Shown: positions 9,260 through 27,833, counted from the stretch's first letter. The stretch: 32,451 nt of DNA from Thermoanaerobaculia bacterium (GCA_022071945.1 JAJVIN010000021.1:1-32451); one strand, 5' to 3'. Numbers and translations: made by a program. The notes: generated from the letters alone by a model not told the origin.

Positions 9260-9262
9260 ACG

Positions 9263-11033: not shown

Positions 11034-12503
11034 ATGCCAATGGACCTGACGGAACTCCTGAAGTTCGTCACGAAGAAGGAAGCCTCGGACCTTCATCTGA
11101 AGCCCGGGCGGCCGCCCCTCCTGCGCGTGAACGGCCGCCTCGTCCCGCTCAAGACCGACCCCCTGGCCCCGAAAGATCTCGAAGACATGGTCTTGCCGAT
11201 CCTGTCGCCCATGCAGCGCGAGAAGCTGATGGTGAACTACTCGGTGGACATCGGATACGGCGTGCAGGGTGTGGCGCGGTTTCGAGGCAACATCTTCCTC
11301 CAGCGCGGCAGCTGGACTGCCGTCTTCCGCCGGATTCCCTTCCAGATCCCGTCCGTCGCGGACCTGAACCTGCCCGACGTCCTGGGAACGTTCATGGATC
11401 TTCCGAACGGCCTCGTCTTGGTCACGGGACCGACCGGATCGGGCAAGTCGACGACCCTGGCCTCGGTCATGAAGGGCATCACGGAGCGGCACCCCGTCCA
11501 CATCGTCACGATCGAGGATCCGATCGAGTACCTCTTCCAGGACAACCTCGCATCCGTTTCACAAAGAGAAGTCGGCACGGACACGGTCTCGTTCGAGGAG
11601 GCCCTCAAGAACGCCCTGCGCCAGGACCCCGACGTCATCATGGTGGGCGAGATGCGGGACTGGGAGACGATGTCGACCGCCATCACGGCGGCCGAGACGG
11701 GCCACCTCGTCTTCTCGACGCTCCACACGAACAACGCGGCGCAGACGATCGACCGCATCATGGACTCGTGTCCGCCCACGATGTCGAATCAGGTCCGCCG
11801 CCAGGTCGCGCTCGTCCTTCGGGGAATCGTCTCGATGTCCCTCATCGAGCGCGTCGACGGGAAGGGTCAGATTCCCGTCGTCGAGGTCCTGATCAACTCG
11901 CCGAAGATCGCCAAGCAGATCGAGAACGGCGAGACGAAGGAAATCCTGGAGGAGATGGAGACGTCGGTCGGCTACTACAAGATGCAGTCGATGAACCAGT
12001 CGCTGATCGCTCTCTTGGTCAACGGCATCATCGGCATCGACAAGGCGATGGCCGCCTCGAGCGATCCGGAAGACCTCTCCCTGAAGCTCCGAAAGCTGTT
12101 CCCCGAAATCGAAGAGAAACTCCGCGGAGGGATCACCATGCCGTCGCCCAATGACTTTTCCGCCATCACCGAGCTGATGGACGTCAAGAAGCTCTACGAG
12201 GAGCAGGAAGAGAAGTGGCGCCTGCGGCTCCAGGAAAAGGAAGACCTCATCGCTCAGCTCGAGCAGGAGATCCGCGATCGCGAAAGAATGGTCGAGGCAC
12301 GCATGCAGCAGCAGGCGGACGTCGAGGGCGAGGTCGGCCGGATGCGTCAGGAAAACGAGCGCGTCAAACAGGAAGCCGCCGCCAGGATCGCGCAGCTCAA
12401 CGACCGCATCCGCGAGCTGAACCAGCGCCTCATGAGCGCCGGGGGGGCAGCCGCGGCTCCGGCTCCAGCTCCTCAGCCTCCCTCGGGGTTCTTCAAGCGC
12501 TGA
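11034..12503 (+). CDS. pilT: PilT-family type IV pilus retraction ATPase with an unusual ~140-aa C-terminal coiled-coil extension
   Basis: N-terminus 'MDLTELLKFVTKKEASDLHLKPGRPPLLRVNG'. Walker A 'GPTGSGKSTT', 'IEDPIEY', 'VGEMRD', 'AAETGHLVFSTLHTN' are all PilT hallmarks. The C-terminal 'KKLYEEQEEKWRLRLQEKEDLIAQLEQEIRDRERMVEARMQQQ...' reads as heptad-like coiled coil, ending in a Pro/Ala tail. The ORF begins at 10983, but the ATG with a ribosome-binding site is at 11034. Confidence 0.85.
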   Translation: MPMDLTELLKFVTKKEASDLHLKPGRPPLLRVNGRLVPLKTDPLAPKDLEDMVLPILSPMQREKLMVNYSVDIGYGVQGVARFRGNIFLQRGSWTAVFRRIPFQIPSVADLNLPDVLGTFMDLPNGLVLVTGPTGSGKSTTLASVMKGITERHPVHIVTIEDPIEYLFQDNLASVSQREVGTDTVSFEEALKNALRQDPDVIMVGEMRDWETMSTAITAAETGHLVFSTLHTNNAAQTIDRIMDSCPPTMSNQVRRQVALVLRGIVSMSLIERVDGKGQIPVVEVLINSPKIAKQIENGETKEILEEMETSVGYYKMQSMNQSLIALLVNGIIGIDKAMAASSDPEDLSLKLRKLFPEIEEKLRGGITMPSPNDFSAITELMDVKKLYEEQEEKWRLRLQEKEDLIAQLEQEIRDRERMVEARMQQQADVEGEVGRMRQENERVKQEAAARIAQLNDRIRELNQRLMSAGGAAAAPAPAPQPPSGFFKR

Positions 12504-12532
12504 CCGCCTTCCGCCGCGCCAGCTGACAGTTC

Positions 12533-14383
12533 GTGGGTAGACGACGCTCCCTCTGGCTGGCGCTGGCCGTGGCCGGCGTTCTCCTCGTCACTCTCGCTTT
12601 CGCCAGCTGGCGATGGCTCGATCGCAAGGTCACCCGCCTGGCGTCCCCCGAGTCTCACCGGGAAAAGTCCACCAGGGAGCTCCTGTTCCGCCCGCTCGCC
12701 CGTTCAGAGAAGGGCGCCAGCCTTCTCGGCGATGGCTCCGTCCGAACCCTGGCCAGACTCGGTGACGCGCTCTGGACCGGAGGAGGCAGCGGCCTCGATT
12801 CGGGACTTTCCCCGCTCACGCCGGCCGATGGTCTCGCCTCGCTCCGGGTCGCCTCGATCGCGGTCTTCAAGGAGTCCCTCGTCTACGCCCTGGAAGCGGG
12901 CGGCTGGGGCAGGGTCACCGTAGACGGACCCGAGGAGGCCTCGTCGGGCTTCGGGACCCTTCATGTCCGCCACATGGCGGCCTCTCCCGCCAGCGAGCTC
13001 TACCTGGCCGCGGCGGAGGGTCTTTTCCGCGTCTCGCCCGGCGGTCAGGAAATCGAACGGCTCGATGCGAGCTCCTTTCGCGCCGTCCTCCTGTTGCCCT
13101 CGGGGGGGCTCCTGGCCGGCGGAGAGACGGGCCTCGCGCTCTTTCCCGCCGCCTCCTCCGTCCGGGAGGAAGTACCGGCGCCGGACCCCTGGATCGAGGG
13201 CCTCGCGTTCGACGGAGCGAACGTCTGGGTCTCGACCGCTTCAGGCATCGCGCTCGGGGCCCTGGACGGCAGAAGCATCGTACTGAATCCGCACCCCAAG
13301 GGCTTCGGCCTCAGCTCCGGAGTCCTCTGGAGAGGGCGCTGGATCGCTCCGTCGGGCCCGGGCGAGAGACACCTGACGGCGCTTGCGGCCGGCGGAGACA
13401 GCGCGGAGATCGCGATCCCCGAGCCCTTCCCTCGCGTTCTGGCCTGGGCGGGACAGCTCTTTGGAGATGGCGATTCCGGCCTTCACGTCTACCTGGAAGA
13501 CGGGACCTGGCAGCTCGTGAAAAAGCGGCCGTCGCGTTCCCTCCCCTGGCCGCACGTCAACGCTCTGGCCGTCCGGGAAACGGATGCCTGGCTCGGGTTC
13601 TTCGACGGACCCATCGTCCGTTTTCGCAACCTCGACTCGATCGAAGCTCCCGGGTCCAGGGAACCGTGGGGAGTCAATGCCCTTCTCTCGGCGGGCGGCG
13701 CGGTCTATGCCGCGACCCTCCGTGGCGCGTACCGCATCGCGGGCGGAGCCTTCGAAAAACTGCCAGGAGGCGGCGCCGCGTTCTCCGTGGCAGAGAGCCC
13801 CGAGGGAGTGATCTTCGGCTTCGGCGAGGGAGTCCTGTTCCCGGGGCCCCGTCTCCTTTCGGCTTTCCACGGACTGCCGGGCAACCAGGCCTACGCGCTC
13901 GCGGCCGGCAGCCGTCCCGGAACCCTCTGGGTCGGAACTCCGAGCGGGCTCGGCCGCATCGAGGGGCGCCGGATCACGTTGAGGGTGGCGCGGGGAGAGG
14001 GCCGGCTTCCTCACCCCTGGATCACGGCGCTCGTCGAGGCCGATGAGGGGCTCTGGATCGCGACCTATGGAGGCGGGATTTGCCGGGTCGCGGAATCAGG
14101 CGGCGGACTCGCCTGGACTTCGTTCCCCGAGACGGCGGGCCTCAAGGTCAACCCGGGCGCCCTCGTGCGCACACCCTCTGGAGATGTGATCTTCGGCACG
14201 CAAGGCCAGGGCCTCTGGGGCCTACAGTCCGGGACACAGCAGTTCCAGCGGCTTAGAATTCCCTTGCCGTCCACAAATGTCTTCAGCTTGGCGCTCTACC
14301 CGGCGACCTCTCCGGCCACACTCCTGGCCGGAGCGGACGAGGGCTTGGCGTTTCTCCCGCTCGCTGCGCTCTTCAAACCCTGA
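12533..14383 (+). CDS. Membrane-anchored beta-propeller-like repeat protein (hypothetical)
   Basis: 616 aa with an N-terminal signal anchor 'LWLALAVAGVLLVTLAFASW'. Gly/Trp-rich repeats such as 'GLWIATYGGGICRV', 'GTLWVGTPSGLGRI', 'ANVWVSTASGIALG' resemble Reg_prop/PQQ-type propeller blades. Starts 30 nt after pilT and ends 10 nt before the next gene. Confidence 0.55.
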   Translation: MGRRRSLWLALAVAGVLLVTLAFASWRWLDRKVTRLASPESHREKSTRELLFRPLARSEKGASLLGDGSVRTLARLGDALWTGGGSGLDSGLSPLTPADGLASLRVASIAVFKESLVYALEAGGWGRVTVDGPEEASSGFGTLHVRHMAASPASELYLAAAEGLFRVSPGGQEIERLDASSFRAVLLLPSGGLLAGGETGLALFPAASSVREEVPAPDPWIEGLAFDGANVWVSTASGIALGALDGRSIVLNPHPKGFGLSSGVLWRGRWIAPSGPGERHLTALAAGGDSAEIAIPEPFPRVLAWAGQLFGDGDSGLHVYLEDGTWQLVKKRPSRSLPWPHVNALAVRETDAWLGFFDGPIVRFRNLDSIEAPGSREPWGVNALLSAGGAVYAATLRGAYRIAGGAFEKLPGGGAAFSVAESPEGVIFGFGEGVLFPGPRLLSAFHGLPGNQAYALAAGSRPGTLWVGTPSGLGRIEGRRITLRVARGEGRLPHPWITALVEADEGLWIATYGGGICRVAESGGGLAWTSFPETAGLKVNPGALVRTPSGDVIFGTQGQGLWGLQSGTQQFQRLRIPLPSTNVFSLALYPATSPATLLAGADEGLAFLPLAALFKP

Positions 14384-14393
14384 TGGAGATTCT

Positions 14394-16757
14394 ATGAACC
14401 GGCGTCTCGTGGCGCTCCTCGGCGCAAGCCTGATCGTCCTGGCCTCCCCCCTCCTTGCCCAGTCCGGCCTTCTGGTCCCGGCATCCAGCGGGGTGCCTGA
14501 CCCGAAAGTCCTCTCTCTGAGAGAGATGTCGATCGATGCGGGCATCGCGCGAGGGTTCGTGAGGGTCAACGTGAAGCAGGTCTACGAAAACCACACGGCG
14601 CTGATCCAGGAGGGAATCTGGCGGTTCCAGCTCCCCCCTTCCGGGCTCGTCGGCGACTTCGCGGTCTGGGATGGCCTCGTGAGAATTCCCGGCGTGATCC
14701 TCGAGAAGCGGCGCGCCCGGGCCATCTACAAGGAGTTGACGACGCAGCGGATCGATCCAGGCCTCTTGCAGCAGGGCGAGGAAGAAGACACCGAGCCATC
14801 GGGTTCGGGGCGGCCGGCCGACAGGCCGTCGGGCGGAGCGGGATTTTCCGTCCGCGTCGCCCCGATCCCGGCCTGGGGCACGAAACGTCTGGAGATGCAG
14901 TATCAGTACGAGGTGCCATGGGTCGACGGCTCGGGCGAGTTCCGGCTGGCCATCCGTCCCCGCGAAGGTGACGGGATGGTCGCCGGGACACTCGACGTCA
15001 GGGTGGTTCTCCTCGACGGCGAGTTCCTCCCCTTTTCGAAAAACAGCCTGGAGCTTTCAGTCAAGGGAAACGAGGCCTCTTTCTCGGGCCGGAACGTGAA
15101 GCTCGCGCGGGACGTGATCGTGAGGTTCAAGCCGAAGGTTCCCTCCGGGATGACGTTCTCGGCCTTCCGGAATCCGGCGGGGTCGCTCCCCGACGGTCTC
15201 TCCCTGGCCCCGTGGGAACGCCCCGCCGACGTCCCTCCGGAAAAGGACGGCTTCTTCCTCGTCGAGTACTTCCCATCGAAAGGCGGCTCCACGGTCGCGC
15301 GCGCCCAGGGCAAGGCTCCCGAAGAAAAACGCGACCCGATCTCGGTTGCCATCCTCTTCGACACGTCCCTCTCCCATCGCTGGGCAGGACTGGAATCCGG
15401 ATACAACTTCCTCAGCCGCGTCCTGGATTCCCTCAAGGGCGATGACCGTTTTGCCCTGGTGCCCTTCGATCTCGACCCCGCATCCGGCGTCGCGCTTGCT
15501 CGCCTCTCGCCCGAGAGCCGGAATCAGGCCTTGACCGCGCTTCGCGCCCGCGAGCTCGGGCCGGGCACAGACTTCGCCAAGGCCCTGAAGGCCGCCGCTG
15601 CCCTTCTGGGAAGCTCTCCCAATGCCCGCATCCTGGTGATCACGGACGGGTACGGGCTCGCGAAGAACCTCAAGGATGCGGCCGGAAGGCTGCCGGTGTA
15701 TTCCATTCTGACCGGTGAGGAACGCCGCGAGGCCTTCACGGTGGCGTCCGAGCAGAGCCTTCATCTGGCCTCCGCCAGCGAAGCCGACGAGACCCTCTTC
15801 CTGCGTGAGCTCGTGGCGCCCGCCCGAACAACTCAGAAGGCAACGCCGAAGGCTGTCAGCGCGGAGGTTCCCGTCGTCACATCGGGGGCCGCGAACCCCA
15901 GGGTGAGAGACGTCTACCCCGTCATGAAGCAGCCTCCGGTGCCCGGTTCCCTCTCGGGATGGGTCGGCCGCTACGAGGCGCCGGCGGCCAGCGTCACGGT
16001 TTCCCTCCGGGAGATCCCCGATCAGAAGACCGTCACGAGCTTTCCCGAATCCGCGCTCGAGGCCCGGGATCTCCCGAGGCGCTGGGCCAAGGCACGGGTC
16101 GACCACCTGCTCGCCTTGATCGAGCTCGAGGGGGAAAAGCGGGAGTGGATCGAGGAGATCATCGAGCTCTCCCGCCGGTACAAATTCGTCACCCCCTACA
16201 CGGCATTCCTGGCAGCCCCCCGATCGCTTCTGAGGCCGCGCCGGATCCAGCCCGGAGACCCCGTCATCCGGGTCGAGGCCGAAGAGGGCACGCGAGCCGT
16301 GACAGCCCTGCTTCCGTTCGGAAAAGCCCTCACCCTGACGAGGCGTCCGGGAACGCAGCTGTGGGAAGGCCGGTTCCTTGTCCCCGAGGGGACCAAAGAC
16401 GGTCCCATGTCCGTACGGCTCCTTCTGAGGGACGTATCGGGAAAGACGATCACAGAAACGAAGCGAGTCGTCATCGACGGGACCCCCCCCAGCATCCGTC
16501 CCGACCCTCCCCGCTCGATCTTGCCGGGGCGCCCCGCCGTCGTGGCCGCGCGGGCCGACTCGGATGTCATCTTCCTGTCCGTGAGGCTCGGCTCCGGCCC
16601 CCCGGTTCCCCTCAGGTGGAATCCCGAGACCAAGCGCTCGGAAGCGGAGATTCTCGTCCCGCCCTCGGCCGCCTCCGTGGAAGAGCTCTTCTTCGAGGCT
16701 TCTGACGGGGCCGGGAACCATGGCTTTGCCCGGACGCGGGTGGAGGTGCTGCAGTGA
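14394..16757 (+). CDS. Secreted VIT (vault/inter-alpha-trypsin) + von Willebrand factor A domain protein
   Basis: Signal peptide 'MNRRLVALLGASLIVLASPLLAQS', with a GGAG ribosome-binding site 6 nt upstream of the ATG at 14394. VIT-like N-domain ('VKQVYENHTALIQEGIWRFQLPPSGLVGDFAVWDGLVRIPGVILEKRRARAIYKEL'). vWA domain with MIDAS motif 'ILFDTSLSH'. The ITIH-like C-terminal motif 'KFVTPYTAFLA' is present. The ORF is open from 14277. Confidence 0.8.
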   Translation: MNRRLVALLGASLIVLASPLLAQSGLLVPASSGVPDPKVLSLREMSIDAGIARGFVRVNVKQVYENHTALIQEGIWRFQLPPSGLVGDFAVWDGLVRIPGVILEKRRARAIYKELTTQRIDPGLLQQGEEEDTEPSGSGRPADRPSGGAGFSVRVAPIPAWGTKRLEMQYQYEVPWVDGSGEFRLAIRPREGDGMVAGTLDVRVVLLDGEFLPFSKNSLELSVKGNEASFSGRNVKLARDVIVRFKPKVPSGMTFSAFRNPAGSLPDGLSLAPWERPADVPPEKDGFFLVEYFPSKGGSTVARAQGKAPEEKRDPISVAILFDTSLSHRWAGLESGYNFLSRVLDSLKGDDRFALVPFDLDPASGVALARLSPESRNQALTALRARELGPGTDFAKALKAAAALLGSSPNARILVITDGYGLAKNLKDAAGRLPVYSILTGEERREAFTVASEQSLHLASASEADETLFLRELVAPARTTQKATPKAVSAEVPVVTSGAANPRVRDVYPVMKQPPVPGSLSGWVGRYEAPAASVTVSLREIPDQKTVTSFPESALEARDLPRRWAKARVDHLLALIELEGEKREWIEEIIELSRRYKFVTPYTAFLAAPRSLLRPRRIQPGDPVIRVEAEEGTRAVTALLPFGKALTLTRRPGTQLWEGRFLVPEGTKDGPMSVRLLLRDVSGKTITETKRVVIDGTPPSIRPDPPRSILPGRPAVVAARADSDVIFLSVRLGSGPPVPLRWNPETKRSEAEILVPPSAASVEELFFEASDGAGNHGFARTRVEVLQ

Positions 16758-19700
16758 AAGCGACTCGAGGACGGCGGCGATTCCCGCGGCGTCGAATCCT
16801 GGCCCTTTTGCCCGCGAGTCTCTCGCTGCTGGCGCTGGGCGCCCTCGCGAGCGCCGGGTCCTACATCCCTTTCGAGGACCTCACGGACAAGGACGGCCTG
16901 GCGGCGGTCCTGAGGCGGACCGCCAGAATCGAGGGGCGGATCGTCTACTACCCTGCACCTCCGGCCGAGGCTGAGCCCGAGCTCTCGCGGCGGTCGGCCG
17001 CAGCGGACGCGGAGGCCCAGGCGGCCACCCGGCACCTCGCCGCGACACGGCGGGAGCTGGGCAACCTCAAGGGAGCCCAAGAAGCCATGACCCGGTGGGC
17101 CACGGCAAGCGCCAGCGAAGCTGCTGAAAGGTGGGCGGAGACGGCCCGATGGGCGCGTTCTTACCGGCTCTTCCCGTTCGCCTTCGAAGCGGCCGAGAAG
17201 GCCTTGCAGGCTCCGGCGGGGGCCGGAAGCGAGGCTGGCAGAAAGAAGCTCGCGAGTGACAGGATCGACTGGGCGCAAGCCTTCCCCGAGCACGCGAGCG
17301 CGGAGAAGCTCGTCGAGGCCCGCGCGAAGCTCTTCCCGGAAGATCAGGCCTTTTTCAACGCGTGGATCCAGTCCCTCGAGAAGTCGAACCGGATCAAGGA
17401 CGCCGAGGAGGCGCTCAGGAAGAACACCAGCCTCTCGGAAGAGAACCGGGCCGTCCTGGTGGCGCGTCTGAAGAAGAAGTCAGGCGACGGCACGGGAGCC
17501 CTGTCTGTCCTGGAGACCTTCATCAGCCGGTCGGGCCGGGCCCCACAGCAGGCCACATCCACCCTGTTTTCCGAGGTCGTTCTGGCCACCGCGCCGTCCA
17601 GAGTGGACGAGTGGCGGGCCACCCTGGACAAGAAGTTCGACGCGACCGCCCTCCTGTTGCTCGAGGTCTTTTTCAAGGGCAAGGGGCGTGGAGACCTGGC
17701 GCTTCAGCTCCTTCAGCAGTCCGATGCCCGGCACCTGGGCAGCGTCGACCGCAAGGGAGCGATGCTCCTCGCCCAGCTCTACGAGGGTCTCAACGCCGTT
17801 CCCGAGGCGTTCCGGACGCGTCTGGCGTCATCGAGAAACGCGAACGAGAAAGAGAAGCTCGACGATCTTGCGGCCCTCGCTTCCCTTGCGCTGAAGGCCG
17901 GTTCGCGTCCCCTCGCCTGGGGTCAGTTCAACGAGGAACCCTACCGGTGGGCGGCCCGGATCGACGTGACCCCCGGCTTCTTCACGGGGGGCCTCTCGCT
18001 CCTCTTGACGGGATTCGACGGAAAGGCCTCTCTTTCCGAGCTCGAGAATCAGCGGCTGCCCGACAGGACCTTCCGGACGGCCCAGGCCCTCATCGCGGAG
18101 CTCGAGAAGAGGTCTCCCACACACCCGAGCCTGCCGGCGCTCGCCCTTGGCACGATGGAAAAGCTCGTCCAGCGCAGCGAGGGTTCCAAGGCGCTCGAAC
18201 TTCTGCCCAAGGCGGACAAAGGTACGGCGGAAATCAGGGCTGCCGCGCGCAAGGTCGCTCTCCTGGCGATCCGCCAGACGAAAGCGCCCCTGGATCGCGA
18301 AGCCGCTCTGTGGAAGGAGCGGCTCGCGCTTCTTGCACCTGACGGATCGAAGGTCACCTTCCAGGCCTACCGGAGCGCCCGCTCCGAGGAGGACGAGAAC
18401 GACGAGGCGGACCCGCCAGGAGCACCCGCGGAGTCCAGGGGAATGGCTTCTCCCGAGTACCAGTGGGTCTTGCAGGAGGCGCTCTCGCGGCTCTCGAGCC
18501 GGGACAAGTCGAACGCGGCCTCTCTCGCTCTCCTCCTCAACGAGATGGACCGGCTGCCGAAAGCCGAGCCCCTCTGGACGTACGCCTGCAACGAGATCGA
18601 GCGCTGGACCCTCGACTCCACGCTCGAGAGCCGTTACAAGCACGCCCTGAAGACGTTCGAGGGAACCGAGTGGTGGAAGCGCGTCTTCCGCTGGTACGTC
18701 CGTCAGAAGCGGGGGGCCGAGCAGCGCGCGCTCGCCGACGAGGTCGTGGCGACGTTTCGGACGAGCGAGATCTTCCGGCGGGATCCAGGATTCCAGGGAG
18801 CCATTTCACTCGAAGGCCAGCCGAATCCCTTCATCACGATCAGCGACTACATCCGGCTGAAGGCACTCGAGCGATTCCCGGCCTCGCCACAGGTCCTCAG
18901 GGAGGCCGAGTCGCGCCTGATCTCCCGCTCCATCTACCAGGGGCTCTCGACGAGTGACCGGGCGGCGCGTCAGGGCTACGGGGTCGTGGAAGACGCGCTC
19001 CTCGAACTGCGCCGGGATGCCGTGCTCTTCATCGAGCCCGCGAGGCGCGCCGCGTTTCTCGACCGCCTGATGAAGGAGAACCGGCTCGAAGCCTTCCTGA
19101 AGGCTCTGGAGGCGAGCCCCGAGAAGACTCCCGTGGAGCTTCGGTTCCTGTCGGATGGCTGGAGCCGGCTCTCGAAGTTCGAACTGGCGGCGGGCTACGC
19201 CCTGAAGCTCTCGGAGCTCTACCCGGCCGCCCCGGACGCGGCCTCGGATGCCATCACGCTCCACCGCTCGATCTCGGGACTCTCCCCCGCCATGGCGGAG
19301 AAAGTCCTGCCGATGGTGAGACGGCTGGCCGCGACAGGCGCCGACACCACCGCCCTGTGGACGAACGCGGGCGAGATGTGGCAGGACCTCGACCAGCCCG
19401 GACGCGCCTCGGAGGCTTTCGAAAGGATCCTCGAACCAGGACCCAGGGAGCCGTCCCGGATCCTCGACCTCGCCACGGTCTACTGGGACTACGGCCGGAT
19501 GGACGAGGCCGAAAGGGTGCTCCGGGACGGGAGAAAGCGCATCTCGGAGCCCAGCCTGCACGCCTTCGAGGCCGGAGTGCTGCGCGAAGAGAAAAAGGAC
19601 ATCGACGGCGCCTTGACCGAGTACCTCGCCGCCCTGGACGGCGAGGGAGAGGCATCGGAAGAGAGCAGCTGGGACCCTCACGACTACCGCGCCCTCCGCC

Positions 19701-22700
19701 GCCTCACCCAGCTTCTGGGCCGGCAGCGGGTTCTGGTCGAGCTCGAGAAGCGAGTTCGAAATCTGAAGCCCGGTGTGGCCGAGGACGAGAAGCGCTTGCT
19801 GCCGCTGCTCTATCTGCTCAACTCCGAGCCGGAGACCGTGGAGGACTCCTGGGACGACTGGATCGACATGCCGAATGACCCTGTCGGGCGGGAACAGAGG
19901 GCGCAGAAGCGCGAGAAGGCGACGCCCGCGCAGGAACGCGGCATGACCCAGATCGGTGCGCTTCTTTCCCAGAAGACCCTCGAGATGATTCCCTTGGCCA
20001 CGAACCGCGCTTTCCTGGCGTCCTTGCGTGGATTCCAGACCCAGCTCCTCGACCCGAGGTGGACGAAGGACCCGTTGGCGTCCTCGCGCCTGCAGAGCCT
20101 CCTTCTGGAAAGGGAAGCCGCCCTCATGCCGACGGAGGAAGAGCGGATCCAGAAAGAGCTCGCCCGGATCGCGTTCTTCATCGATCACAACCAGCAGCAG
20201 GAGGCACGCCAGGCGCTCACTCGCCTCGACGCCCGCGTGAACTCGCTCTCGGAGGGCGGCCTGAAGATCAGGAGCCAGGCAAGCCTGGCCCAGATGACCG
20301 AGCGGCTCGGTGGCGATGCCGCCACCGCCTTCCGCTCGTTGACGGACCGGTACCCCTGGTCCCTCGGCGTCATTGAAGACCGGATCGCCTTCTGCTACCG
20401 GAACAAACGGACCTCCGAGGCCCTCGACGTGCTCGAGAAGGCCGCCGTCTCGGCCGCCTCCGGACACAAGGAGAAGCTCTCGGAAAGGCTCGTGCGGGAA
20501 TCGCTCGAGAATGGCGACCTGCCGCGAGCCAAGAAGGCCCTCACGGCGCTTCTCGGCATGAACCTGGACCCGGCCTTGAGGGTGTCGGCGGTCGGCCTGA
20601 TGGGACGCCTGTCGCTTCGCGAGAACCCCTCGTTTGACGCCATTACCTTCGCCAAGACCGAAGCCGCGAAGCTGCCGGAAGAGGTCCGGCCCGATCTGTG
20701 GGCCGCCGTCGCCCGGGGCGCGCGCCAGGAAGGCCGGGGCAAGGCCAGCGTCGACCTCTGGATCGAGGCCATCAACCGTCGGACGCTTCGTGAGTGGCTG
20801 GTGGAAGCGAGCCAGACGGCTACCCAGTTCCAGCTCGAGGCAATCCTCTCGAAGTTCTTCGAGAGCCAGAGAGTGAGGAGCCCGCGCGACGTGAGGTGGG
20901 CCGTCGCCGTCCGCGAGCTGCGAACCCAGGCCGGCGATCTCGCCGGGGCCATCCAGGCCGCGAAGGAGGTTTGCGGGATCGCTCCCGAGAAGGAGATCTA
21001 CTGGAGGGACGCGGTCGACCTCTTCTCGCGCGCCGGCCAGTTCGTCGAGGCGGCGACCTTCCTCGAGGGCTGGGCGTCGAGCCGCAAGGGCGACGAGCGC
21101 ACCGCCTCGTGGCGGGCCGATCTGCTGCTTCGAGGCGGACAAACCCAGAAAGCCATGGAGGTCGAGCGTGCCGCGCTCGAGGCGTGGAAGAAGGAGAGCA
21201 GCCAGAGCCAGAACACCGGGGACGTCGAGTCCGAGCTCGCGGAGCGGACGGCCCGGGTCGCGCGCCGGTTCCTCGAAAGGAACCGCCCCTCGGCAGCCTG
21301 GGCCTTCGCGGTCCCGGGAGGAAAGCTCTCGCGCTCGGCGGAGATTCCGCTGGACCACACATTCAGGACCGACGTGGCCGTCCGCACCGGCAACCTTCTC
21401 GCCCTATTGAAGGCCAACGAGAACGACAGCGATTTCCTCGAGCAGAGCGCCGAGACCATCTCTCAATCGGCCCGAGGCGAGGATCTCGCGGCTCTGCAGG
21501 AATACCTCCTGTCAAAGGTGTTCCCACAGACCGGACCTCCGAGCGACGCGGCCCTGAAGAAGTTCGACCAGTTCGCGCGGAGTTGCGGCCTCTACCGGTG
21601 GGACGAGGCGCTGGCCCGCAATCTGGCGGCCCGGACGCCCGGTCCATGGGGCACGAACCCGCCCGTGGGATTCCTCAGGCGGATCTCTCCGACAGTCAGC
21701 AATCCCACCCGCCTGGCCAAGCCAAACCTCGAGTACCTGTGGGTTCAGCACCTGATCGCCTCAGACGATGTCCCGGCGCTCCGGCAGGCGATCGCACCGC
21801 GCCTGTCCGCGCTCGATTCCTTCGTTTCGACGGGTACGTCCGCCGCTCCGGCGGCTACGTCGCTCTTCCCCGTCGAGGCGCTCGTCAGGATCGCTCAGGC
21901 GCCCGACGGCGCACCAGCTGGGGCTGGAGCGCCAGCTGGGGCTGGCGCGCCCGCTTCGGCAGGCGCGGAGACCCGGGCGATGCTCTCGCGCTGGTTCAAG
22001 ACAAAGGAAACCTATCAGCGTCTTGCCCAGGCCGTCGGTTCGAGGTGGGATCTGACTTCCCTTCTCAAGCTGACGGACGAGGAGACGGTGACGGCGTGGC
22101 TTCTGCACGCCGCTCCCGGCCGCAAAAGCCTCGACCCCGTCGACGAGAAGCGCTGGAGGGTCGAGGTCGACACGGCCCGCGCCCTTGCCTCCCTCATCGA
22201 GGGCAAGGCGGGCGCGCTCCAGAGTCCAGAGATCGCGAGGCTGAGAGGCCCGAGAACGGTCGGAGACGTCATGACGACCGACCCGAAATGGGTCTGGCCG
22301 GACTTTCAGCCTCGCCCCACCGACCACGCGGATGAAGCCATCTACGGCGCCGGTGTGGACCGCGGCCGCACACCCGGCCGCCTCTGGGGAGGCCGGCCCG
22401 GCGATGCCTGGTACGTCCTCGAGTCGCTCGCGCGATACCGGGAGAAGGACCCGAAGGCCCCTTATGTCCCCCTCGAGGCCGCGGCCCGGGGGAACGAAGC
22501 CGATCGAACGCTCCTCGGAGTCCGGACCTCGGAAGGGCTCCAGAACCTTTCCCTCGCCTTGGCTCTCGACGAGGCGTACTTCGCCGACCTCTCCCGCGCC
22601 GACCGGCTCGAGCGCCGGATGCGGCTCCTCATCGCCAACGGCGGGGAGGGCAAGGCAAAGGCGGAAGAACTGCTCAAGAAGGAAGTCGTCAGGCTGCAAG

Positions 22701-24457
22701 GAACGGCAAGTGAGACCCTCTTCCGTCAGTGGGAAGGAGCCTCCGCTCGCCTTTCGCTCTCGGCTCCGGGAGACTTCCTCGATCCGGCAAAGCCGGTTTC
22801 CGCCCCGCTCCTCGCCTACCTTCTGGACGTCTCCGACCTCAAAAAGTACTCCAACCTCAAACCGGCGAATCACGCGGATCTCAAGACCGCTTTGGCGAAT
22901 CGCTGGTACGGCGCCCAGAGCCTGATGTCTCGTGAGGAGCTCGACTACTACCTCAGGGAGCTGTGGGCAACGGGCAGCGGGACGTTCCCGGCCCGGGCGG
23001 TGAAAAACATCCAGAAGATGTGGCCGGAGGCCATCGAGTACCTCTCGGGCGTGCCGGCCCTGCACAGGCAGGCGGCTCTCTCGGCCGTGAAATCTCTTCC
23101 CGATCCGAAACCCGTCGCTTCCGTCGTCGATCAGTCGGGAGACCGGCGCGAGACGGCCCAGCTCCTCCTTTTCCGCGCCGAGCTCGCGTCCTCGCAGGTG
23201 GAGGCGGCAATGGCTCGCGCGCGGCTCATGACGGGCGATACCGAGGCCGCCGCCCTGACTCTTGCGCCCGCTGTTCTCTCCTCGGAAGCATCGGAGGAGC
23301 ACGCCGAGGCCGGGGAAGAAGGCGGCGGCGAACCGGCGGACTCCGAGACGGAATCGGCTTCTTCTCGCCTCAGGCGGCTCCTGACAATCGCCAGAGCGGT
23401 GAAGAACCCGGCCGGAATCCAGGAAACCGAGGCCTACCTTCGCGACCTCGTGAAGAAGCGCCTCGAGAATCGGGTCCTGGCCTCTGGAGATGCATGGATC
23501 CTGGCAGTCGACCTGGCAACGCCCGCGACGATTCGGTCCACCTCGGAGGCCCTGGAGAGAGCCTGGATTCGGGGCGAGTACTTCTCGTTCGCCGACAAGG
23601 CCGGGCTCGTCGGGGCCCTATTCCCCAAGGATCCCGCCGCCGCGCGGACGTGGTTCACGCGAATGGAACGGGCCTCCGACCTAGCGACCATGCGAAAACG
23701 CTCGGAGCTCCTCGTGACGCTCGGGCGCCCGGAGGATGCCGCACGCGAGTGGATCGAGACGCGGACGACGCTTCGGCAGAGTCCACAGATCGACCTGCAG
23801 TCGTTCGACGCCTGGCGACGCCTTCCGGCCGCAAAGGCAGGCACCTCCGCTCCGGCCGCCCCCGATGCCTGGCAAAAGGCCGCGGCATTCTGGAAGAAAC
23901 CGGCTGCGGAGCTGGACCCCGCATGGGGCGAGTCCTTTGCGGCACACCTGGCCAAGTCGCCCTACGACAGGCTCGCCGCGCGAAACGTCCTGCGGAGCCT
24001 GGCCCCGGCACGGGCCGATTACGTGGAACCGGCCGTTGCGGCCCTGAACTCGTCCGAAGACGTGGCGGCCTGGCGAATCGCCCGGTCCGTCCGCCCTCGC
24101 TCCGCCGTCGCGGCCCGCAACGCCCTGCCGTCTCAAACTGTCGACGTGAACTCGTTGAGGACGCGCCGGTTCCTCAAGACCGAGATCGAGGGGCTGCTTT
24201 CCGACCTCGCACGGATCGGGGCAGCCAATGAGCTCGACGGTCTCGTCTCGAAGGCCACCGCGGGTCTCGACGTCATCAAGCCCGGAGCGTCCAGGGCCTT
24301 GCAGCCCGAGCTCACGGCCCTCAAACAGTCCCTGACGGTGTCGCGCGGGGCGGCCTCGCAGGCGTTCCTCAGGGGCGGCCAGTATCTCCCGATCCGTCCA
24401 CGCGACCTCGACTGGGCCCTCTACGCACGGGTCCTCAACCAGGAGAAGGTGCCGTGA
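16754..24457 (+). CDS. Giant (2567 aa) secreted alpha-helical repeat protein of unknown function
   Basis: Single uninterrupted 7.7-kb ORF with GC3-rich codon usage. GTG start overlaps the upstream stop (GTGA). Signal peptide 'RILALLPASLSLLALGALASAGS'. Composition is Ala/Leu/Arg/Glu-rich throughout, which suggests TPR/HEAT-like helical repeats. No catalytic motif was recognised. Contains an internal APAGAG mini-repeat. Confidence 0.8.
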   Translation: MKATRGRRRFPRRRILALLPASLSLLALGALASAGSYIPFEDLTDKDGLAAVLRRTARIEGRIVYYPAPPAEAEPELSRRSAAADAEAQAATRHLAATRRELGNLKGAQEAMTRWATASASEAAERWAETARWARSYRLFPFAFEAAEKALQAPAGAGSEAGRKKLASDRIDWAQAFPEHASAEKLVEARAKLFPEDQAFFNAWIQSLEKSNRIKDAEEALRKNTSLSEENRAVLVARLKKKSGDGTGALSVLETFISRSGRAPQQATSTLFSEVVLATAPSRVDEWRATLDKKFDATALLLLEVFFKGKGRGDLALQLLQQSDARHLGSVDRKGAMLLAQLYEGLNAVPEAFRTRLASSRNANEKEKLDDLAALASLALKAGSRPLAWGQFNEEPYRWAARIDVTPGFFTGGLSLLLTGFDGKASLSELENQRLPDRTFRTAQALIAELEKRSPTHPSLPALALGTMEKLVQRSEGSKALELLPKADKGTAEIRAAARKVALLAIRQTKAPLDREAALWKERLALLAPDGSKVTFQAYRSARSEEDENDEADPPGAPAESRGMASPEYQWVLQEALSRLSSRDKSNAASLALLLNEMDRLPKAEPLWTYACNEIERWTLDSTLESRYKHALKTFEGTEWWKRVFRWYVRQKRGAEQRALADEVVATFRTSEIFRRDPGFQGAISLEGQPNPFITISDYIRLKALERFPASPQVLREAESRLISRSIYQGLSTSDRAARQGYGVVEDALLELRRDAVLFIEPARRAAFLDRLMKENRLEAFLKALEASPEKTPVELRFLSDGWSRLSKFELAAGYALKLSELYPAAPDAASDAITLHRSISGLSPAMAEKVLPMVRRLAATGADTTALWTNAGEMWQDLDQPGRASEAFERILEPGPREPSRILDLATVYWDYGRMDEAERVLRDGRKRISEPSLHAFEAGVLREEKKDIDGALTEYLAALDGEGEASEESSWDPHDYRALRRLTQLLGRQRVLVELEKRVRNLKPGVAEDEKRLLPLLYLLNSEPETVEDSWDDWIDMPNDPVGREQRAQKREKATPAQERGMTQIGALLSQKTLEMIPLATNRAFLASLRGFQTQLLDPRWTKDPLASSRLQSLLLEREAALMPTEEERIQKELARIAFFIDHNQQQEARQALTRLDARVNSLSEGGLKIRSQASLAQMTERLGGDAATAFRSLTDRYPWSLGVIEDRIAFCYRNKRTSEALDVLEKAAVSAASGHKEKLSERLVRESLENGDLPRAKKALTALLGMNLDPALRVSAVGLMGRLSLRENPSFDAITFAKTEAAKLPEEVRPDLWAAVARGARQEGRGKASVDLWIEAINRRTLREWLVEASQTATQFQLEAILSKFFESQRVRSPRDVRWAVAVRELRTQAGDLAGAIQAAKEVCGIAPEKEIYWRDAVDLFSRAGQFVEAATFLEGWASSRKGDERTASWRADLLLRGGQTQKAMEVERAALEAWKKESSQSQNTGDVESELAERTARVARRFLERNRPSAAWAFAVPGGKLSRSAEIPLDHTFRTDVAVRTGNLLALLKANENDSDFLEQSAETISQSARGEDLAALQEYLLSKVFPQTGPPSDAALKKFDQFARSCGLYRWDEALARNLAARTPGPWGTNPPVGFLRRISPTVSNPTRLAKPNLEYLWVQHLIASDDVPALRQAIAPRLSALDSFVSTGTSAAPAATSLFPVEALVRIAQAPDGAPAGAGAPAGAGAPASAGAETRAMLSRWFKTKETYQRLAQAVGSRWDLTSLLKLTDEETVTAWLLHAAPGRKSLDPVDEKRWRVEVDTARALASLIEGKAGALQSPEIARLRGPRTVGDVMTTDPKWVWPDFQPRPTDHADEAIYGAGVDRGRTPGRLWGGRPGDAWYVLESLARYREKDPKAPYVPLEAAARGNEADRTLLGVRTSEGLQNLSLALALDEAYFADLSRADRLERRMRLLIANGGEGKAKAEELLKKEVVRLQGTASETLFRQWEGASARLSLSAPGDFLDPAKPVSAPLLAYLLDVSDLKKYSNLKPANHADLKTALANRWYGAQSLMSREELDYYLRELWATGSGTFPARAVKNIQKMWPEAIEYLSGVPALHRQAALSAVKSLPDPKPVASVVDQSGDRRETAQLLLFRAELASSQVEAAMARARLMTGDTEAAALTLAPAVLSSEASEEHAEAGEEGGGEPADSETESASSRLRRLLTIARAVKNPAGIQETEAYLRDLVKKRLENRVLASGDAWILAVDLATPATIRSTSEALERAWIRGEYFSFADKAGLVGALFPKDPAAARTWFTRMERASDLATMRKRSELLVTLGRPEDAAREWIETRTTLRQSPQIDLQSFDAWRRLPAAKAGTSAPAAPDAWQKAAAFWKKPAAELDPAWGESFAAHLAKSPYDRLAARNVLRSLAPARADYVEPAVAALNSSEDVAAWRIARSVRPRSAVAARNALPSQTVDVNSLRTRRFLKTEIEGLLSDLARIGAANELDGLVSKATAGLDVIKPGASRALQPELTALKQSLTVSRGAASQAFLRGGQYLPIRPRDLDWALYARVLNQEKVP
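21911..21958 (+). repeat. Short in-frame tandem repeat (about 2.5 copies of an 18-bp unit 'gcgccagctggggctgga'), which encodes APAGAGAPAGAGAP inside the giant ORF
   Basis: Direct read of 21901-21960. Confidence 0.5.
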
Positions 24458-26082
24458 TGAAGAACATCGTTCTGGCCTTCTCGGCCGTCGTCATCTTCGC
24501 CGCTCCCTCGTCCGCTCGGGCCGTCGAGCCGGCCGCGGCGCCGGCGGCCGCCCTCGGCAAGCTCCCTCTGCCAGACGGTCCGGTGGTCTTCCTCGTCGAG
24601 GACGTGCCGGCCTTCGAGAAGGCCCTCTCTGGAGGCATCAGAAAGGCCGTCACGGGGAAACTCCCCGAAAGCGATCCCGTCGGAGCCGCCTGGCGACGCA
24701 CACGGGTCGGGAGCAAGCTCGACTCTCAGTGGCAGCTCTTCGCCAGTGACATTCCGCTGACCTGGTCGCAGATCTCGGCGCTTAAGCCCTCGGCCTTCGG
24801 GATGACCCTGCTGGCCGCGGGGGATCTCGAGGCCGTCCTTGTGGTCCGGACAGCGCTGGCTCAATTGCCGGTGCCGCTCCCGAATGGGACTCAGAAGACC
24901 TACAAGGGGTACGCCTACCAGCTCGTCACTCGAGGAGCCGGCGACGACAGGAACCTCGAACGCCGGATGGGACTCGCCTGGTGCCGCGCGGGCCGCCACC
25001 TCTTCCTGGCGACGAGCGAGAGATCGCTTCTCGCCGCCCTCGATGTTCAAGCCGGACAGGGCGGGTTCTCTTCGATGGTGGGCGGGTTCGCCCAGCTGCG
25101 CCTGAACCTCGATGCCCTCAGGAAGGACCTCTACTTCAAGAGGGAGTTTCTCTTCGACGAGGGAACGCAGGGGCCCGCGACAGGGATTCTCCTGGCCGGC
25201 CTGGAACTCGAGGGAAACCGCCTCGTCGAGGTGCGAAAAGGCACGGGAGAGGGCCGGGCGCCGGGAGCCACGTGGCCCGTCGCTCAGCGAAACGTCCGGG
25301 CGGCCGGGTGGGAGCCAGACGGCAAGAGACTCTGGAGCGCGTTCTGGCGCGCCGTTCTCGATCCGGTGCCCAATCCCTCGGACAGGCCCGTCGCCGCCGT
25401 GAAGGTCTTGCCGTCATTCTCGGAGGCCGCGGAGAGCCGGTACCTCGTCGATCTGAGGCAGCCGGTGTCTGCCGGCACGGACGCTGGCGGCGAGGGCGAG
25501 ATCCCCGCGTGGAAAGACCTCATCAAGACCGCGGCCCCCGATGGCTTTGGCTGGGAGGTGACCCGGGACGGATACCCGAGATTCGCCCTGCGCCAGCCGC
25601 CAGCCTTCGACAAGGGATTCGTGGACCTTTCGATCAAAACGCTCTCGCGCCGCTCGGGCATGACGCCGAAAGATGACGGCGGAACCTTGAGGGTCGGACC
25701 CGGTCTCGCTGGACTCGCCTACAAAAGGAAGGGCGGGTTCCTTTGGGTTGGCCTGCGGGGAGAGGACTTGACGGATTGCCCGGAGCCCTCCGGGACGCCG
25801 GACCTCGTCCGGTGGGGATACCTGAATCTCTCCGACGCCTCCCTCGAGCGAGAGGCCTGGCGCCGGGCGGAAGGGGCTTTCTCACCGGAGTACACGCGTC
25901 CCTTCTCTGACAGGATCCTCGGCCTCCTGGGCTGGGCTCCCTCGCTCGAGACCATTTCTTCTGAACGAAAGCGCTCTGGCGACACGTTCACGGAACGTGT
26001 GACGTTCACGTTCTCGGAGACGGCTGGGGCGAAAAAGCCCTCGTCTCCTCCGGCACCCGCCCCCGCGGCCCCGAAGAAGTAG
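24454..26082 (+). CDS. Secreted hypothetical protein (542 aa), translationally coupled to the giant ORF
   Basis: Start (GTG 24454 or ATG 24457) overlaps the giant ORF's stop (gtgATGA). Signal peptide 'MKNIVLAFSAVVIFAAPSSARA'. Pro/Ala/Lys C-terminal tail. No recognised motif. Confidence 0.65.
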   Translation: MMKNIVLAFSAVVIFAAPSSARAVEPAAAPAAALGKLPLPDGPVVFLVEDVPAFEKALSGGIRKAVTGKLPESDPVGAAWRRTRVGSKLDSQWQLFASDIPLTWSQISALKPSAFGMTLLAAGDLEAVLVVRTALAQLPVPLPNGTQKTYKGYAYQLVTRGAGDDRNLERRMGLAWCRAGRHLFLATSERSLLAALDVQAGQGGFSSMVGGFAQLRLNLDALRKDLYFKREFLFDEGTQGPATGILLAGLELEGNRLVEVRKGTGEGRAPGATWPVAQRNVRAAGWEPDGKRLWSAFWRAVLDPVPNPSDRPVAAVKVLPSFSEAAESRYLVDLRQPVSAGTDAGGEGEIPAWKDLIKTAAPDGFGWEVTRDGYPRFALRQPPAFDKGFVDLSIKTLSRRSGMTPKDDGGTLRVGPGLAGLAYKRKGGFLWVGLRGEDLTDCPEPSGTPDLVRWGYLNLSDASLEREAWRRAEGAFSPEYTRPFSDRILGLLGWAPSLETISSERKRSGDTFTERVTFTFSETAGAKKPSSPPAPAPAAPKK

Positions 26083-26084
26083 GT

Positions 26085-27833
26085 GTGATCCGGGGCGCAC
26101 CCTGGGTTCTGGCGGCGCTGCTCCTTCTGGGCAGCGCCCCGGAGGAGGGTCCGGACCGCTGGCAGGTCTGGACTCTGGTGAACGGGACCCTGTCGCCCGG
26201 ATCGCAGACTCCGTCCGCGCCGCGACCCGTGGGCTCGCTCCAGAAACCGTGGGTGCTCAAGGCCTGGGCGGCGGAACACGCCGGCGAGAAGTCGCCGGAA
26301 TATTTCTGCTCCGGAGCTCCCGCGTGCTGGCGAGCGGGCGGTCACGGCTGGCTGGGACTCAGGAGGGCGATTGCCGAGTCGTGCAATGCGTACTTCATCC
26401 GGCTCGCGCGATCGACCTCCGGGGGAGGCCTCGTCTCGGCCTTCACCGAGGCGGGGTTCCTTTTGGAGGGGATTCCAGGTCCCGAGGCCGCGATCGGCCT
26501 TCAGGCACCGAGTGGCGTGATTCGAATCTCTCCTCCGGAGCTCCTGCGCGCCTTCCGACAGCTGATCCGGGAGCCGTGGACGTCGGGAGAGACCCACCGG
26601 CTCGAGCTTCTACGGGGGCTCGAGGAGGCGGGCCGCTCGGGCACCGCTTCGAGTCCGGGACTCCGCGGACTCCTCGTCAAGACCGGCACGGTGAGCCGGG
26701 GCGGAAACGTCCTGGAGGATCTGACCGGGTGGGTCCTCGCGGCGACCCCCGATGGAGAGGAGCTCGCGCTCGGCAAGCTCGAGAAAGCCACAGGACGTCT
26801 CGCCGCCCTCGAGCTCGGGCAGCGGGCCGTGCTGAAGCCACTCGCGCCGCAGGGCAACGAGACCCCTGCTGACCCGGCCGAGAACGTGGCGGTCTGGGTG
26901 TTTTCCGCACTGGCGCCGGAAGAGGTCCATGCCACGAATCTCTCCACGGCTCCCGTTCTGGCCGAGGGGGCGTCCGGCCCGCGGTGGCTGGGCCAGGGAG
27001 GCACGACCTCGATCGAGCCAGGGGACAATCTTGCCGGGGCGGACTGGGAGCTCACCGTTCAGCCGTACGGACTGAAGCGGCGTTTCAAGGGGAGCCTGGA
27101 AATGCTGAGAGGGCGAGGCGCCGAACCGGGGCGGCTGGTGCTTCGGACTCCCGTCCGGAGCTACGTAGAGGGCGTCATCAGGGCGGAGCTCTCGAGTGGA
27201 AGCATCCAGCGGCAGAGAGACCTTGCCGCGGCGATTCTCCGGTTTCTCAGGCGCGGGGATCGGCACCCCCCGGCGTCGGTCTGCGACCGAAATCACTGCG
27301 CCTGGTTCCTCGGCGAGGGCCCGGAGGTCCTCTGGAAAGACCCGCGCCGGCCCGTCCATCAGGAGAGCCGGGCGGAACCTCTCAGGATCGATGACGAGAC
27401 CTTCCGTTCGATCATCGCCAGGTCGAAAACGGCTGGTCCGAGTCTCTGGACGGATCACTGCGGGGGGCGGGCCCTTTCCGAGTGGGAAGTCTGGGGCCGG
27501 GGCTCCCGGCAGACGTGGCCCTGTCCCAGGCACCGCTCGCCCACGAAATCCTGGTCCCGCCCGTTCCCTTCCGAGGCACTTGCGGAGCTTCTCGGCGGGC
27601 CTGTTCGGGATCTGAGGTGCTCGGTCACGTCGGGCTACCGCCGAACGGTCATCGAGCTCGAATCGGGCCGGCGGCTCGAGCTGTCGTTCGACGAGCTCCA
27701 CCGCAGGCTTGCATCACGATTTGGCTGGGGCTCGCTTCCCTCTCCGCCGGAGCGGGCGTCGAGGAAGGGCGACACGTGGGTGCTGTCCGGACACGGCGCG
27801 GGTCATCGGGTCGGGCTCTGCCTCTCCGATTGA
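26085..27833 (+). CDS. Secreted fusion protein: N-terminal class D beta-lactamase/PBP-like penicillin-binding domain plus C-terminal SpoIID/LytB (lytic transglycosylase / amidase-enhancer) domain
   Basis: Signal peptide 'MIRGAPWVLAALLLLGSAPE'. Active-site triad with class-D-like spacing: S51-L-Q-K54 (SxxK), S99-C-N (SxN), K199-T-G (KTG). The OXA/BlaR-like segment 'IRISPPELLRAFRQLI' is present. SpoIID hallmarks follow: 'SYVEGVIRAEL', 'VCDRNHCAWFLG', 'LWTDHCGGRALSEWEVWG', 'GHGAGHRVGLC'. Starts 3 nt after the previous stop. Confidence 0.8.
   Translation: MIRGAPWVLAALLLLGSAPEEGPDRWQVWTLVNGTLSPGSQTPSAPRPVGSLQKPWVLKAWAAEHAGEKSPEYFCSGAPACWRAGGHGWLGLRRAIAESCNAYFIRLARSTSGGGLVSAFTEAGFLLEGIPGPEAAIGLQAPSGVIRISPPELLRAFRQLIREPWTSGETHRLELLRGLEEAGRSGTASSPGLRGLLVKTGTVSRGGNVLEDLTGWVLAATPDGEELALGKLEKATGRLAALELGQRAVLKPLAPQGNETPADPAENVAVWVFSALAPEEVHATNLSTAPVLAEGASGPRWLGQGGTTSIEPGDNLAGADWELTVQPYGLKRRFKGSLEMLRGRGAEPGRLVLRTPVRSYVEGVIRAELSSGSIQRQRDLAAAILRFLRRGDRHPPASVCDRNHCAWFLGEGPEVLWKDPRRPVHQESRAEPLRIDDETFRSIIARSKTAGPSLWTDHCGGRALSEWEVWGRGSRQTWPCPRHRSPTKSWSRPFPSEALAELLGGPVRDLRCSVTSGYRRTVIELESGRRLELSFDELHRRLASRFGWGSLPSPPERASRKGDTWVLSGHGAGHRVGLCLSD

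Follow-up and report, generated by a model that had tools for sequence, protein, structure and literature searches.

The stretch of DNA examined here, referred to below as the window, comprises 32,451 nucleotides from a Thermoanaerobaculia bacterium (GCA_022071945.1, JAJVIN010000021.1:1-32451) and has a G+C content of approximately 66%. Between positions 11034 and 27833 it carries six tightly packed open reading frames (ORFs) on the plus strand, designated g1 to g6, as described in an earlier reading made from the DNA without database searches (the sequence-only reading). The last five of these form a module that is conserved across the phylum Acidobacteriota and is the main subject of this report. 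The six ORFs are as follows.

g1: 11034-12503, plus strand, 489 aa, PilT-family ATPase
g2: 12533-14383, plus strand, 616 aa, predicted membrane-anchored Reg_prop beta-propeller protein
g3: 14394-16757, plus strand, 787 aa, predicted secreted VIT-vWA protein resembling inter-alpha-trypsin-inhibitor heavy chains (ITIH)
g4: 16754-24457, plus strand, 2567 aa, predicted secreted giant protein
g5: 24454/24457-26082, plus strand, 542 aa, predicted secreted protein without a family match
g6: 26085-27833, plus strand, 582 aa, transpeptidase/SpoIID fusion

The junctions between these genes were read directly off the sequence. A 29-nt gap separates g1 from g2, and a 10-nt gap with a GGAG ahead of the ATG separates g2 from g3; g3 and g4 overlap by 4 nt in a GTGA, g4 and g5 overlap by 4 or 1 nt in a GTGATG, and g5 and g6 are 2 nt apart. 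The spacings of 10, -4 and -1/-4 nt proposed earlier are therefore correct, and those of 30 and 3 nt are each too long by one. Scanning for promoters and terminators returned no more sites than were found in shuffled sequence. A hydrophobicity scan placed a hydrophobic segment at the N-terminus of each of g2 through g5, which fits a Sec signal or signal anchor, and the N-terminus of g6 has a hydrophobic stretch of only about 10 residues, under the threshold of the scan. The products of g2 to g6 are thus all predicted to be exported or membrane-anchored.

To examine how well this arrangement is conserved, we searched a set of genomes, one for each GTDB species, with a profile of VIT-vWA proteins, which yielded 72 loci. 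Seventy of these are close relatives, all from metagenome-assembled genomes (MAGs) labelled Acidobacteriota or unclassified; the two weakest matches (23-27% identity, one of them from a planctomycete) lie at loci without the module. When the window proteins were compared with the scanned loci by tblastn, neighboring genes of the module were found to be adjacent, co-linear and co-directional in most loci: g2-g3 in 57 of 59 loci, g3-g4 in 56 of 59, g4-g5 in 43 of 44 and g5-g6 in 31 of 37. About 75 related loci were compared overall. The order propeller, VIT-vWA, giant, g5, g6 is repeated, with overlaps of 1-4 nt, in the cultured organism Mesoterricola silvestris (AP027080) and in a Thermoanaerobaculia MAG, and further copies of the module occur in Thermoanaerobaculia, Holophagae and Bryobacteraceae. 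What lies downstream of g6 varies among genomes, and the flanking genes differ by lineage. Synteny over dozens of genomes rules out a chance arrangement for g2-g6, although not for g1. The true unit is therefore the five-gene module g2-g6 (12533-27833), kept across Acidobacteriota, and for these five genes the synteny that the sequence-only reading had put forward as a check proved strong.

The same comparison does not support the six-gene unit that had been proposed, which included pilT (g1). Of the 49 loci with enough upstream sequence, only 12 have pilT ahead of the module, and pilT was not among the genes called beside distant modules for which an upstream flank was at hand. Therefore, g1 is a lineage-specific bystander of the module rather than a member of it. 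All 12 pilT-bearing loci belong to one sub-clade in which the synteny with the amidase, gatA and CCA genes farther upstream is kept too, as expected of plain local synteny among close relatives. In 7 of the 12, approximately 1.4-2 kb separates pilT from g2, and in the one such locus scanned this interval contains an unrelated TPR gene. Outside the pilT sub-clade, a search for a conserved gene upstream of g2 found none.

As a protein, g1 is a genuine PilT-family ATPase (TIGR01420, 407 bits against a cut-off of 319) and shows 75-84% identity within the sub-clade in which it has stayed beside the module. Residues ~350-489 form a C-terminal coiled-coil extension of about 140 residues ending in an Ala/Pro-rich tail, and its AIRNLIRE-type motif (IAKQIENG) diverges from the PilT consensus.

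The first protein of the module, g2, has a single N-terminal transmembrane (TM) helix at residues ~7-25 by hydrophobicity scan and matches Pfam Reg_prop (4e-7). Compared with the PDB, its family profile identified the sensor propellers of Bacteroides hybrid two-component systems, 4a2l (3.8e-20) and 3v9f (4.6e-18). By these matches, g2 is a bitopic membrane protein with a predicted periplasmic propeller region of the Reg_prop type. It shares that region with the Bacteroides sensors, whose periplasmic Reg_prop domains bind glycans; however, it lacks the Y_Y_Y, histidine kinase, receiver and DNA-binding domains of those proteins, as judged by Pfam.

The g3 protein contains a VIT domain at residues 42-129 (nt 14517-14780; Pfam, 4.6e-13) and a vWA domain at residues 318-433 (nt 15345-15692; VWA_2, 5e-8). 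It resembles human ITIH4 (chain 9c4f, 2.6e-10) over three co-linear segments that include both domains, and shares with it a conserved ...Y.FVTP.T(S/A)... segment. Unlike ITIH proteins, g3 has no ITI_HC_C domain and no heavy-chain cleavage/ester-transfer site in the Pfam scan; it ends instead in a conserved region of about 190 aa that has no Pfam match in the window protein and gives a faint Big_13 (Ig-like) match in distant orthologs. A further difference from ITIH concerns the metal ion-dependent adhesion site (MIDAS), which is intact in the window protein (DTSLS...GPGTD...TDG) but degenerate in a third to half of the orthologs, where S327, T392 and D418 are replaced. Two other assignments were considered and rejected. 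With the model for sortase-target VIT-vWA proteins, TIGR03788, g3 reaches 55 bits where the cut-off is 552; it ends in ...RVEVLQ with no sorting signal, and the window has no sortase gene. A vWA-TPR operon of the Bat/MoxR type does not fit either, as the window has no MoxR or DUF58 gene.

The giant g4 is the centerpiece of the module. It is rich in Ala, Leu, Arg and Glu, with a signal-like N-terminus and only four cysteines in 2567 residues. Whether scanned whole or in six pieces of about 500 aa against Pfam and NCBIfam, it returned nothing past weak, sub-threshold TPR_19/TPR_16 matches near residues 880-960, 1210 and 1390-1450. It has no match among PDB sequences, self-BLAST detected no internal repeats, and its composition gives no sign of a C-terminal beta-barrel. 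We infer from its composition and these faint matches that g4 is probably a TPR-like helical solenoid. A conservation profile of 43 orthologs indicated that it is conserved over its whole length. A HMMER search with residues 301-1500 retrieved 477 relatives among 1.84 billion representatives, nearly all of 2200-2600 aa when complete. These include a large group of distant giants of 2,200-2,500 aa, one of them in a Bryobacteraceae MAG, that are 27-30% identical to and co-linear with g4. Some giants carry the database names "cellulose synthase operon protein C" or "TadD", through TPR similarity. Within g4, an 18-nt tandem repeat at 21908-21967 encodes a low-complexity insert, (A-P-A-G-A-G)n, at residues ~1719-1738; residues 1701-1750, where it falls, are the least conserved and most gapped of the protein (identity 0.29, gaps 0.39).

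The most constant partner of the giant is g5, a 542-aa alpha/beta protein that has no family match in Pfam or NCBIfam and whose profile gave no usable match to PDB sequences. Its 322 homologs, where they carry an organism name, are all from Acidobacteriota. Its positional equivalents in distant modules align co-linearly with it at E values of only 0.04-0.07, so position and length are the sole grounds for calling these proteins orthologs. In one distant lineage, a giant and a partner of about 580 aa stand by themselves downstream of MlaE/MlaF/MlaD-like genes and an Amidase_3 gene, with none of the propeller, VIT-vWA, Transpeptidase or SpoIID genes close by. It therefore appears that the module can be dispersed and that the giant and g5 are its minimal core.

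The last protein of the module, g6, is divided into two halves.

g6, N-terminal half: 26085-26840, plus strand, minimal class-B-type penicillin-binding transpeptidase domain
g6, C-terminal half: 26877-27833, plus strand, beta-rich linker and divergent SpoIID/LytB-like domain

The N-terminal half has a transpeptidase fold with three motifs, SxxK (S51-L-Q-K54, nt 26235-26246), SxN (S99-C-N101, nt 26379-26387) and KTG (K199-T-G201, nt 26679-26687). Unlike class B penicillin-binding proteins (PBPs), g6 has no membrane anchor or pedestal, the domain beginning about 25 residues past the signal-like N-terminus, and it has no SEDS partner, as an FtsW/RodA gene is absent from the module. The C-terminal half contains the motifs YVEGVIRAE368 (E368 at nt 27186-27188), VCDxxHC, HCGG and GHRVGLC. 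E368 is invariant in the g6 family and belongs to a ...GV..AE. motif whose conserved Glu we take, following the SpoIID literature, to be the catalytic residue; VCDxxHC and HCGG likewise resemble, in our judgment, SpoIID motifs.

Direct searches did not recover a SpoIID domain in g6. Pfam SpoIID (PF08486) has no match to the window protein and reaches 0.086 in 1 of 10 family members, TIGR02669 picks up 4 of 9 at 0.005 (16.8 bits, with a cut-off of 83), and a profile of the C-terminal half has no usable match among PDB sequences. The assignment comes instead from distant modules. Around three of the distant giants lies a six-gene version of the module, encoding Reg_prop, VIT-vWA, the giant, a protein of ~530-570 aa that belongs to no family, a Transpeptidase of 250-260 aa and a SpoIID protein of 270-320 aa; the contig of the Bryobacteraceae MAG opens with a fragment of a gene (109 aa) that directly precedes VIT-vWA, and the propeller position is cut off. 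The split proteins pass the curated Pfam cut-offs in their own right, Transpeptidase at 4.2e-9 and SpoIID at 1.6e-12 and 1e-13 in the loci L082 and L083, respectively. In profile-profile comparisons the N-terminal half of g6 matches the split Transpeptidase protein (E 5.9e-20) and the C-terminal half matches the separate SpoIID genes (hhalign E 1.4e-12 for L082 and 5.2e-10 for L083). Since these SpoIID proteins pass Pfam, the SpoIID call for g6 is correct despite the failed direct search. Of the domain calls in the sequence-only reading, PilT (TIGR01420), VIT and vWA (Pfam VIT and VWA_2) thus reach significance by hidden Markov model directly, and the penicillin-binding/SpoIID fusion was also called correctly, although its SpoIID part is significant by profile-profile comparison and not by direct search of the window protein.

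On this evidence, the window g6 is the fused form of two genes found separately in other lineages, and the split and fused forms act as a "Rosetta stone" indicating that the two predicted enzyme activities work together. In having the conserved Glu and distant orthologs that pass Pfam SpoIID, g6 resembles the SpoIID/LytB proteins. It differs from the SpoIID-SpoIIP-SpoIIM engulfment machine in being fused to a transpeptidase domain, in its non-sporulating diderm host and in that the module has no conserved SpoIIP or SpoIIM partner.

A similar pairing of domains is present in the E. coli protein YfaQ, which carries Pfam SpoIID (7.2e-6 in the region aligned to g6) and DUF2300. An alignment of the g6 family with one of YfaQ homologs by hhalign gave a probability of 96.7% (E 3.6e-10) over 317 columns (g6 27-399, YfaQ 34-362), running from the transpeptidase-like domain through the linker into the first part of the SpoIID-like domain. 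The YfaQ motifs GSLWK, SCGLYF and VKTWS lie opposite SLQK, SCN and KTGT of g6, and the segment of YfaQ that scores as SpoIID aligns with g6 residues 357-399. The two proteins are therefore homologous, although g6 has no Pfam DUF2300 match and has canonical SxN and KTG motifs where YfaQ has SCG and KTW. The YfaQ family also has an invariant C-terminal HEYLHLAF, resembling the HExxH of metallopeptidases, that is absent from g6 (E. coli K-12 yfaQ, L077 3149-4798; alignment A5). YfaQ has been described as having a transpeptidase-like N-terminus, a SpoIID-like C-terminus and a Sec signal peptide, and deletion of yfaQ produced wider cells and a phenotype profile tied to peptidoglycan and envelope genes (preprint 10.1101/2025.02.11.637708).

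YfaQ, encoded in the E. coli cluster yfaA-T-S-Q-P, corresponds to MagE of the Pseudomonas aeruginosa magABCDEF operon; both are operons for type II alpha-2-macroglobulins. In the Mag system, the giant macroglobulin MagD is held at the inner membrane by the TM protein MagB, and its processing changes when MagE is lost (PMC5764988). The mag operon confers protection against peptidoglycan-targeting effectors of type VI secretion systems (PMC12663445). The Acidobacteriota module shares two features of layout with the Mag/Yfa operons: each opens with a TM-anchored protein of ~600 aa, and each encodes the transpeptidase/SpoIID protein just downstream of a giant exported protein. However, the giants differ, in that true Mag operons show MG2, A2M_BRD and A2M domains, whereas g4 appears TPR-like and helical and has no MG2 or A2M domain. 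The remaining components differ as well, with VIT-vWA, the Reg_prop propeller and g5 in place of DUF2138 (MagB), DUF1175 (MagC) and YfaP_C (MagA/F), none of which has a Pfam match in the module. We also considered a Mag operon in disguise, and hhalign was negative (g5 against DUF2138, E 0.076; g2 against DUF2138, 0.5; g3 against YfaP, 0.043). By these comparisons the module is not a Mag operon, although the two have a single homologous component in common and are similarly laid out; the Mag/Yfa macroglobulin operon is nevertheless its nearest known relative, via that single component. A second known pairing of this kind is that of the alpha-2-macroglobulin YfhM with PBP1c, in which a very large periplasmic protein is encoded beside a penicillin-binding peptidoglycan enzyme. 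PBP1c is a bifunctional glycosyltransferase/transpeptidase, whereas g6 combines a lone transpeptidase with a SpoIID-like domain and its partner is not a macroglobulin.

A literature search for this gene combination in Acidobacteria found no paper, and almost all of the module proteins are named "hypothetical" or, generically, "TPR protein" in the databases. The suggestion that no described system matches the locus thus holds for the combination of genes, but not for g6, which belongs with YfaQ and MagE and so supplies a partial known relative. We conclude that the module is a real, deeply conserved and uncharacterized envelope system of Acidobacteriota with a core unlike anything described.

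What this system may do can be proposed from its parts. Our preferred reading, which we regard as evenly balanced between being right and wrong, is that the module encodes a periplasmic scaffold complex, tethered to the inner membrane, with its own enzyme to cut and re-crosslink peptidoglycan; such a complex would be analogous to the giant alpha-2-macroglobulins that are paired with YfaQ or PBP1c. It builds on the observed gene content, synteny, domain identities, homology of g6 to YfaQ and split and fused g6 forms. All five products would leave the cytoplasm by the Sec pathway and would most likely act in the periplasm, because no outer-membrane secretion gene accompanies the module. In the inner membrane, g2 would expose a beta-propeller of the glycan-sensor type and tether or position the assembly, a role suggested by its fold family and by analogy with MagB. 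The VIT-vWA protein, the TPR-like solenoid of 2,300-2,600 residues and g5 would together build up a large scaffold, located next to the peptidoglycan or inside it. The g6 protein is predicted to contribute two domains, a penicillin-binding-type transpeptidase whose active-site triad is intact and a SpoIID-type domain that cleaves glycan strands; it could open the wall locally and re-crosslink it, either to let the oversized complex be inserted, held in place or serviced or to repair the wall. The idea in the sequence-only reading of an envelope- or peptidoglycan-associated assembly is consistent with this evidence.

Several observations weigh against this proposal. Of the five proteins, g6 alone has a relative that could be detected in the Mag/Yfa operons, and the helical-solenoid nature of g4 is drawn from composition and weak TPR matches. 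The MIDAS is degenerate in many g3 orthologs, so metal-dependent ligand binding is not a universal step. A periplasmic rather than a surface site is favored solely by the lack of nearby secretion genes. Finally, YfaQ itself has a modified KTG (KTW), and catalysis by g6 is a prediction from its motifs.

The main rival to the scaffold reading is an envelope guard of the Mag type, in which the giant, the VIT-vWA protein and g5 would act in the periplasm to trap or shield against incoming hydrolases, such as proteases or the peptidoglycan-targeting toxins of competitors, and g6 would repair the wall. The homology of g6 to YfaQ/MagE, the protection that the mag operon affords against type VI effectors, and the order of a TM-anchored ~600-aa protein, a giant and a transpeptidase/SpoIID protein, which parallels MagB-MagD-MagE, would all be expected of such a guard, as would a VIT-vWA protein, since this is the architecture of the heavy chains in a eukaryotic protease-inhibitor complex. 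However, MG, A2M and thioester domains are all missing from the giant, which has only four cysteines and shows no evident bait-region logic; the module lacks detectable DUF2138, MagC/DUF1175 and YfaP_C; and g4 is evenly conserved, without the hypervariable region that contact with enemy effectors might bring. We therefore consider a guard function unlikely, although it deserves to be taken seriously.

Two further explanations were considered. In one, the module would serve an exopolysaccharide or matrix, with the giant as a TPR scaffold of the BcsC/PelB/AlgK type, the propeller binding glycan, the VIT-vWA protein binding or stabilizing the polymer and g6 opening the wall for export. ITIH proteins bind or stabilize hyaluronan, the g2 propeller is homologous to domains of Bacteroides hybrid two-component sensors, and the database names of some giants, "cellulose synthase operon protein C" and "TadD", point the same way. 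Against this, the module has no conserved neighbor encoding a glycosyltransferase, synthase, polymerase, flippase or outer-membrane porin, and the composition of the giant lacks the sign of a C-terminal beta-barrel, so this explanation seems to us quite improbable. The other joins all six genes into a machine akin to type IV pili, with PilT powering a split PilY1-like adhesin and an extracellular assembly. PilY1 combines vWA and propeller domains, and the sequence-only reading had drawn the same analogy from the neighboring PilT, propeller and vWA genes; moreover, the PilT-family ATPase lies 29 nt upstream of g2 with no terminator-like site between them. Against it, pilT is confined to the 12 of 49 loci of one sub-clade and is not called beside the distant modules with an upstream flank at hand, and the propeller is of the Reg_prop/hybrid two-component sensor type rather than that of PilY1 and is anchored in the inner membrane. 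No pilin, PilB, PilC or PilMNOPQ gene was found among the window ORFs scanned. Synteny contradicts the pilus explanation, and we give it almost no credence.

Returning to the scaffold reading, a more far-reaching form of it is possible but, in our view, rather doubtful. The module would then encode a phylum-wide, undescribed periplasmic mega-complex of Acidobacteriota, composed of a TPR solenoid, a VIT-vWA protein, a tethered propeller, a protein of new fold (g5) and its own transpeptidase/SpoIID enzyme, and would represent a general diderm design built here around a non-macroglobulin core. If so, then together with the A2M-YfaQ and A2M-PBP1c pairs, a giant periplasmic protein plus a dedicated enzyme to cut and re-seal peptidoglycan would be a general design principle of the diderm envelope. 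Few bacteria are as abundant in soil as the Acidobacteriota, and hardly any work has addressed the biology of their envelope; the module amounts to about 15 kb of coding sequence kept from Thermoanaerobaculia and Holophagae to Bryobacteraceae. The link between g6 and YfaQ/MagE offers a first handle on its function and suggests that, in unrelated phyla, giant periplasmic proteins have a transpeptidase/SpoIID unit at their side. It thereby bears on the role of MagE/YfaQ and the bacterial macroglobulin operons, and on how oversized proteins fit around the peptidoglycan mesh. The presence of the module in the cultured M. silvestris makes it experimentally accessible.

The remainder of the window contains the following genes.

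DUF4340 protein: 892-2361, minus strand
GldG-like ABC_transp_aux/DUF7088 protein: 2374-3825, minus strand
ABC-2 permease: 3822-4559, minus strand
ABC ATPase: 4564-5568, minus strand
Amidase_3 protein: 5738-8050, minus strand, 770 aa, upstream flank of the six genes
gatA: 7780-9408, minus strand, upstream flank
CCA/poly(A)-polymerase-family gene: 9613-10920, plus strand, upstream flank
M61 peptidase with a PDZ domain: downstream of g6, minus strand, convergent with g6
555-aa protein: 30530-32197, minus strand

The first four genes (892-5568) form a cluster arranged like gliding-associated transporters of the GldA/F/G type. In the Amidase_3 protein, the MurNAc-L-Ala amidase domain is split by an insertion and flanked by long N- and C-terminal extensions, and its gene is syntenic with gatA-CCA-pilT in the pilT sub-clade. 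Its longest ORF overlaps that of gatA by ~270 nt, so one of the two start codons probably lies further downstream. Within the CCA/poly(A)-polymerase gene, a 15-nt tandem repeat at 9653-9706 (3.6 copies, 94% matches) encodes PPVVR-PPVVR-PPVVR at the protein N-terminus, before the PolyA_pol head domain. In the 555-aa protein at the far end of the window, the N-terminal half is very rich in Pro and Ala, a single TM segment is predicted, TPR models match weakly and the C-terminal region is beta-rich.

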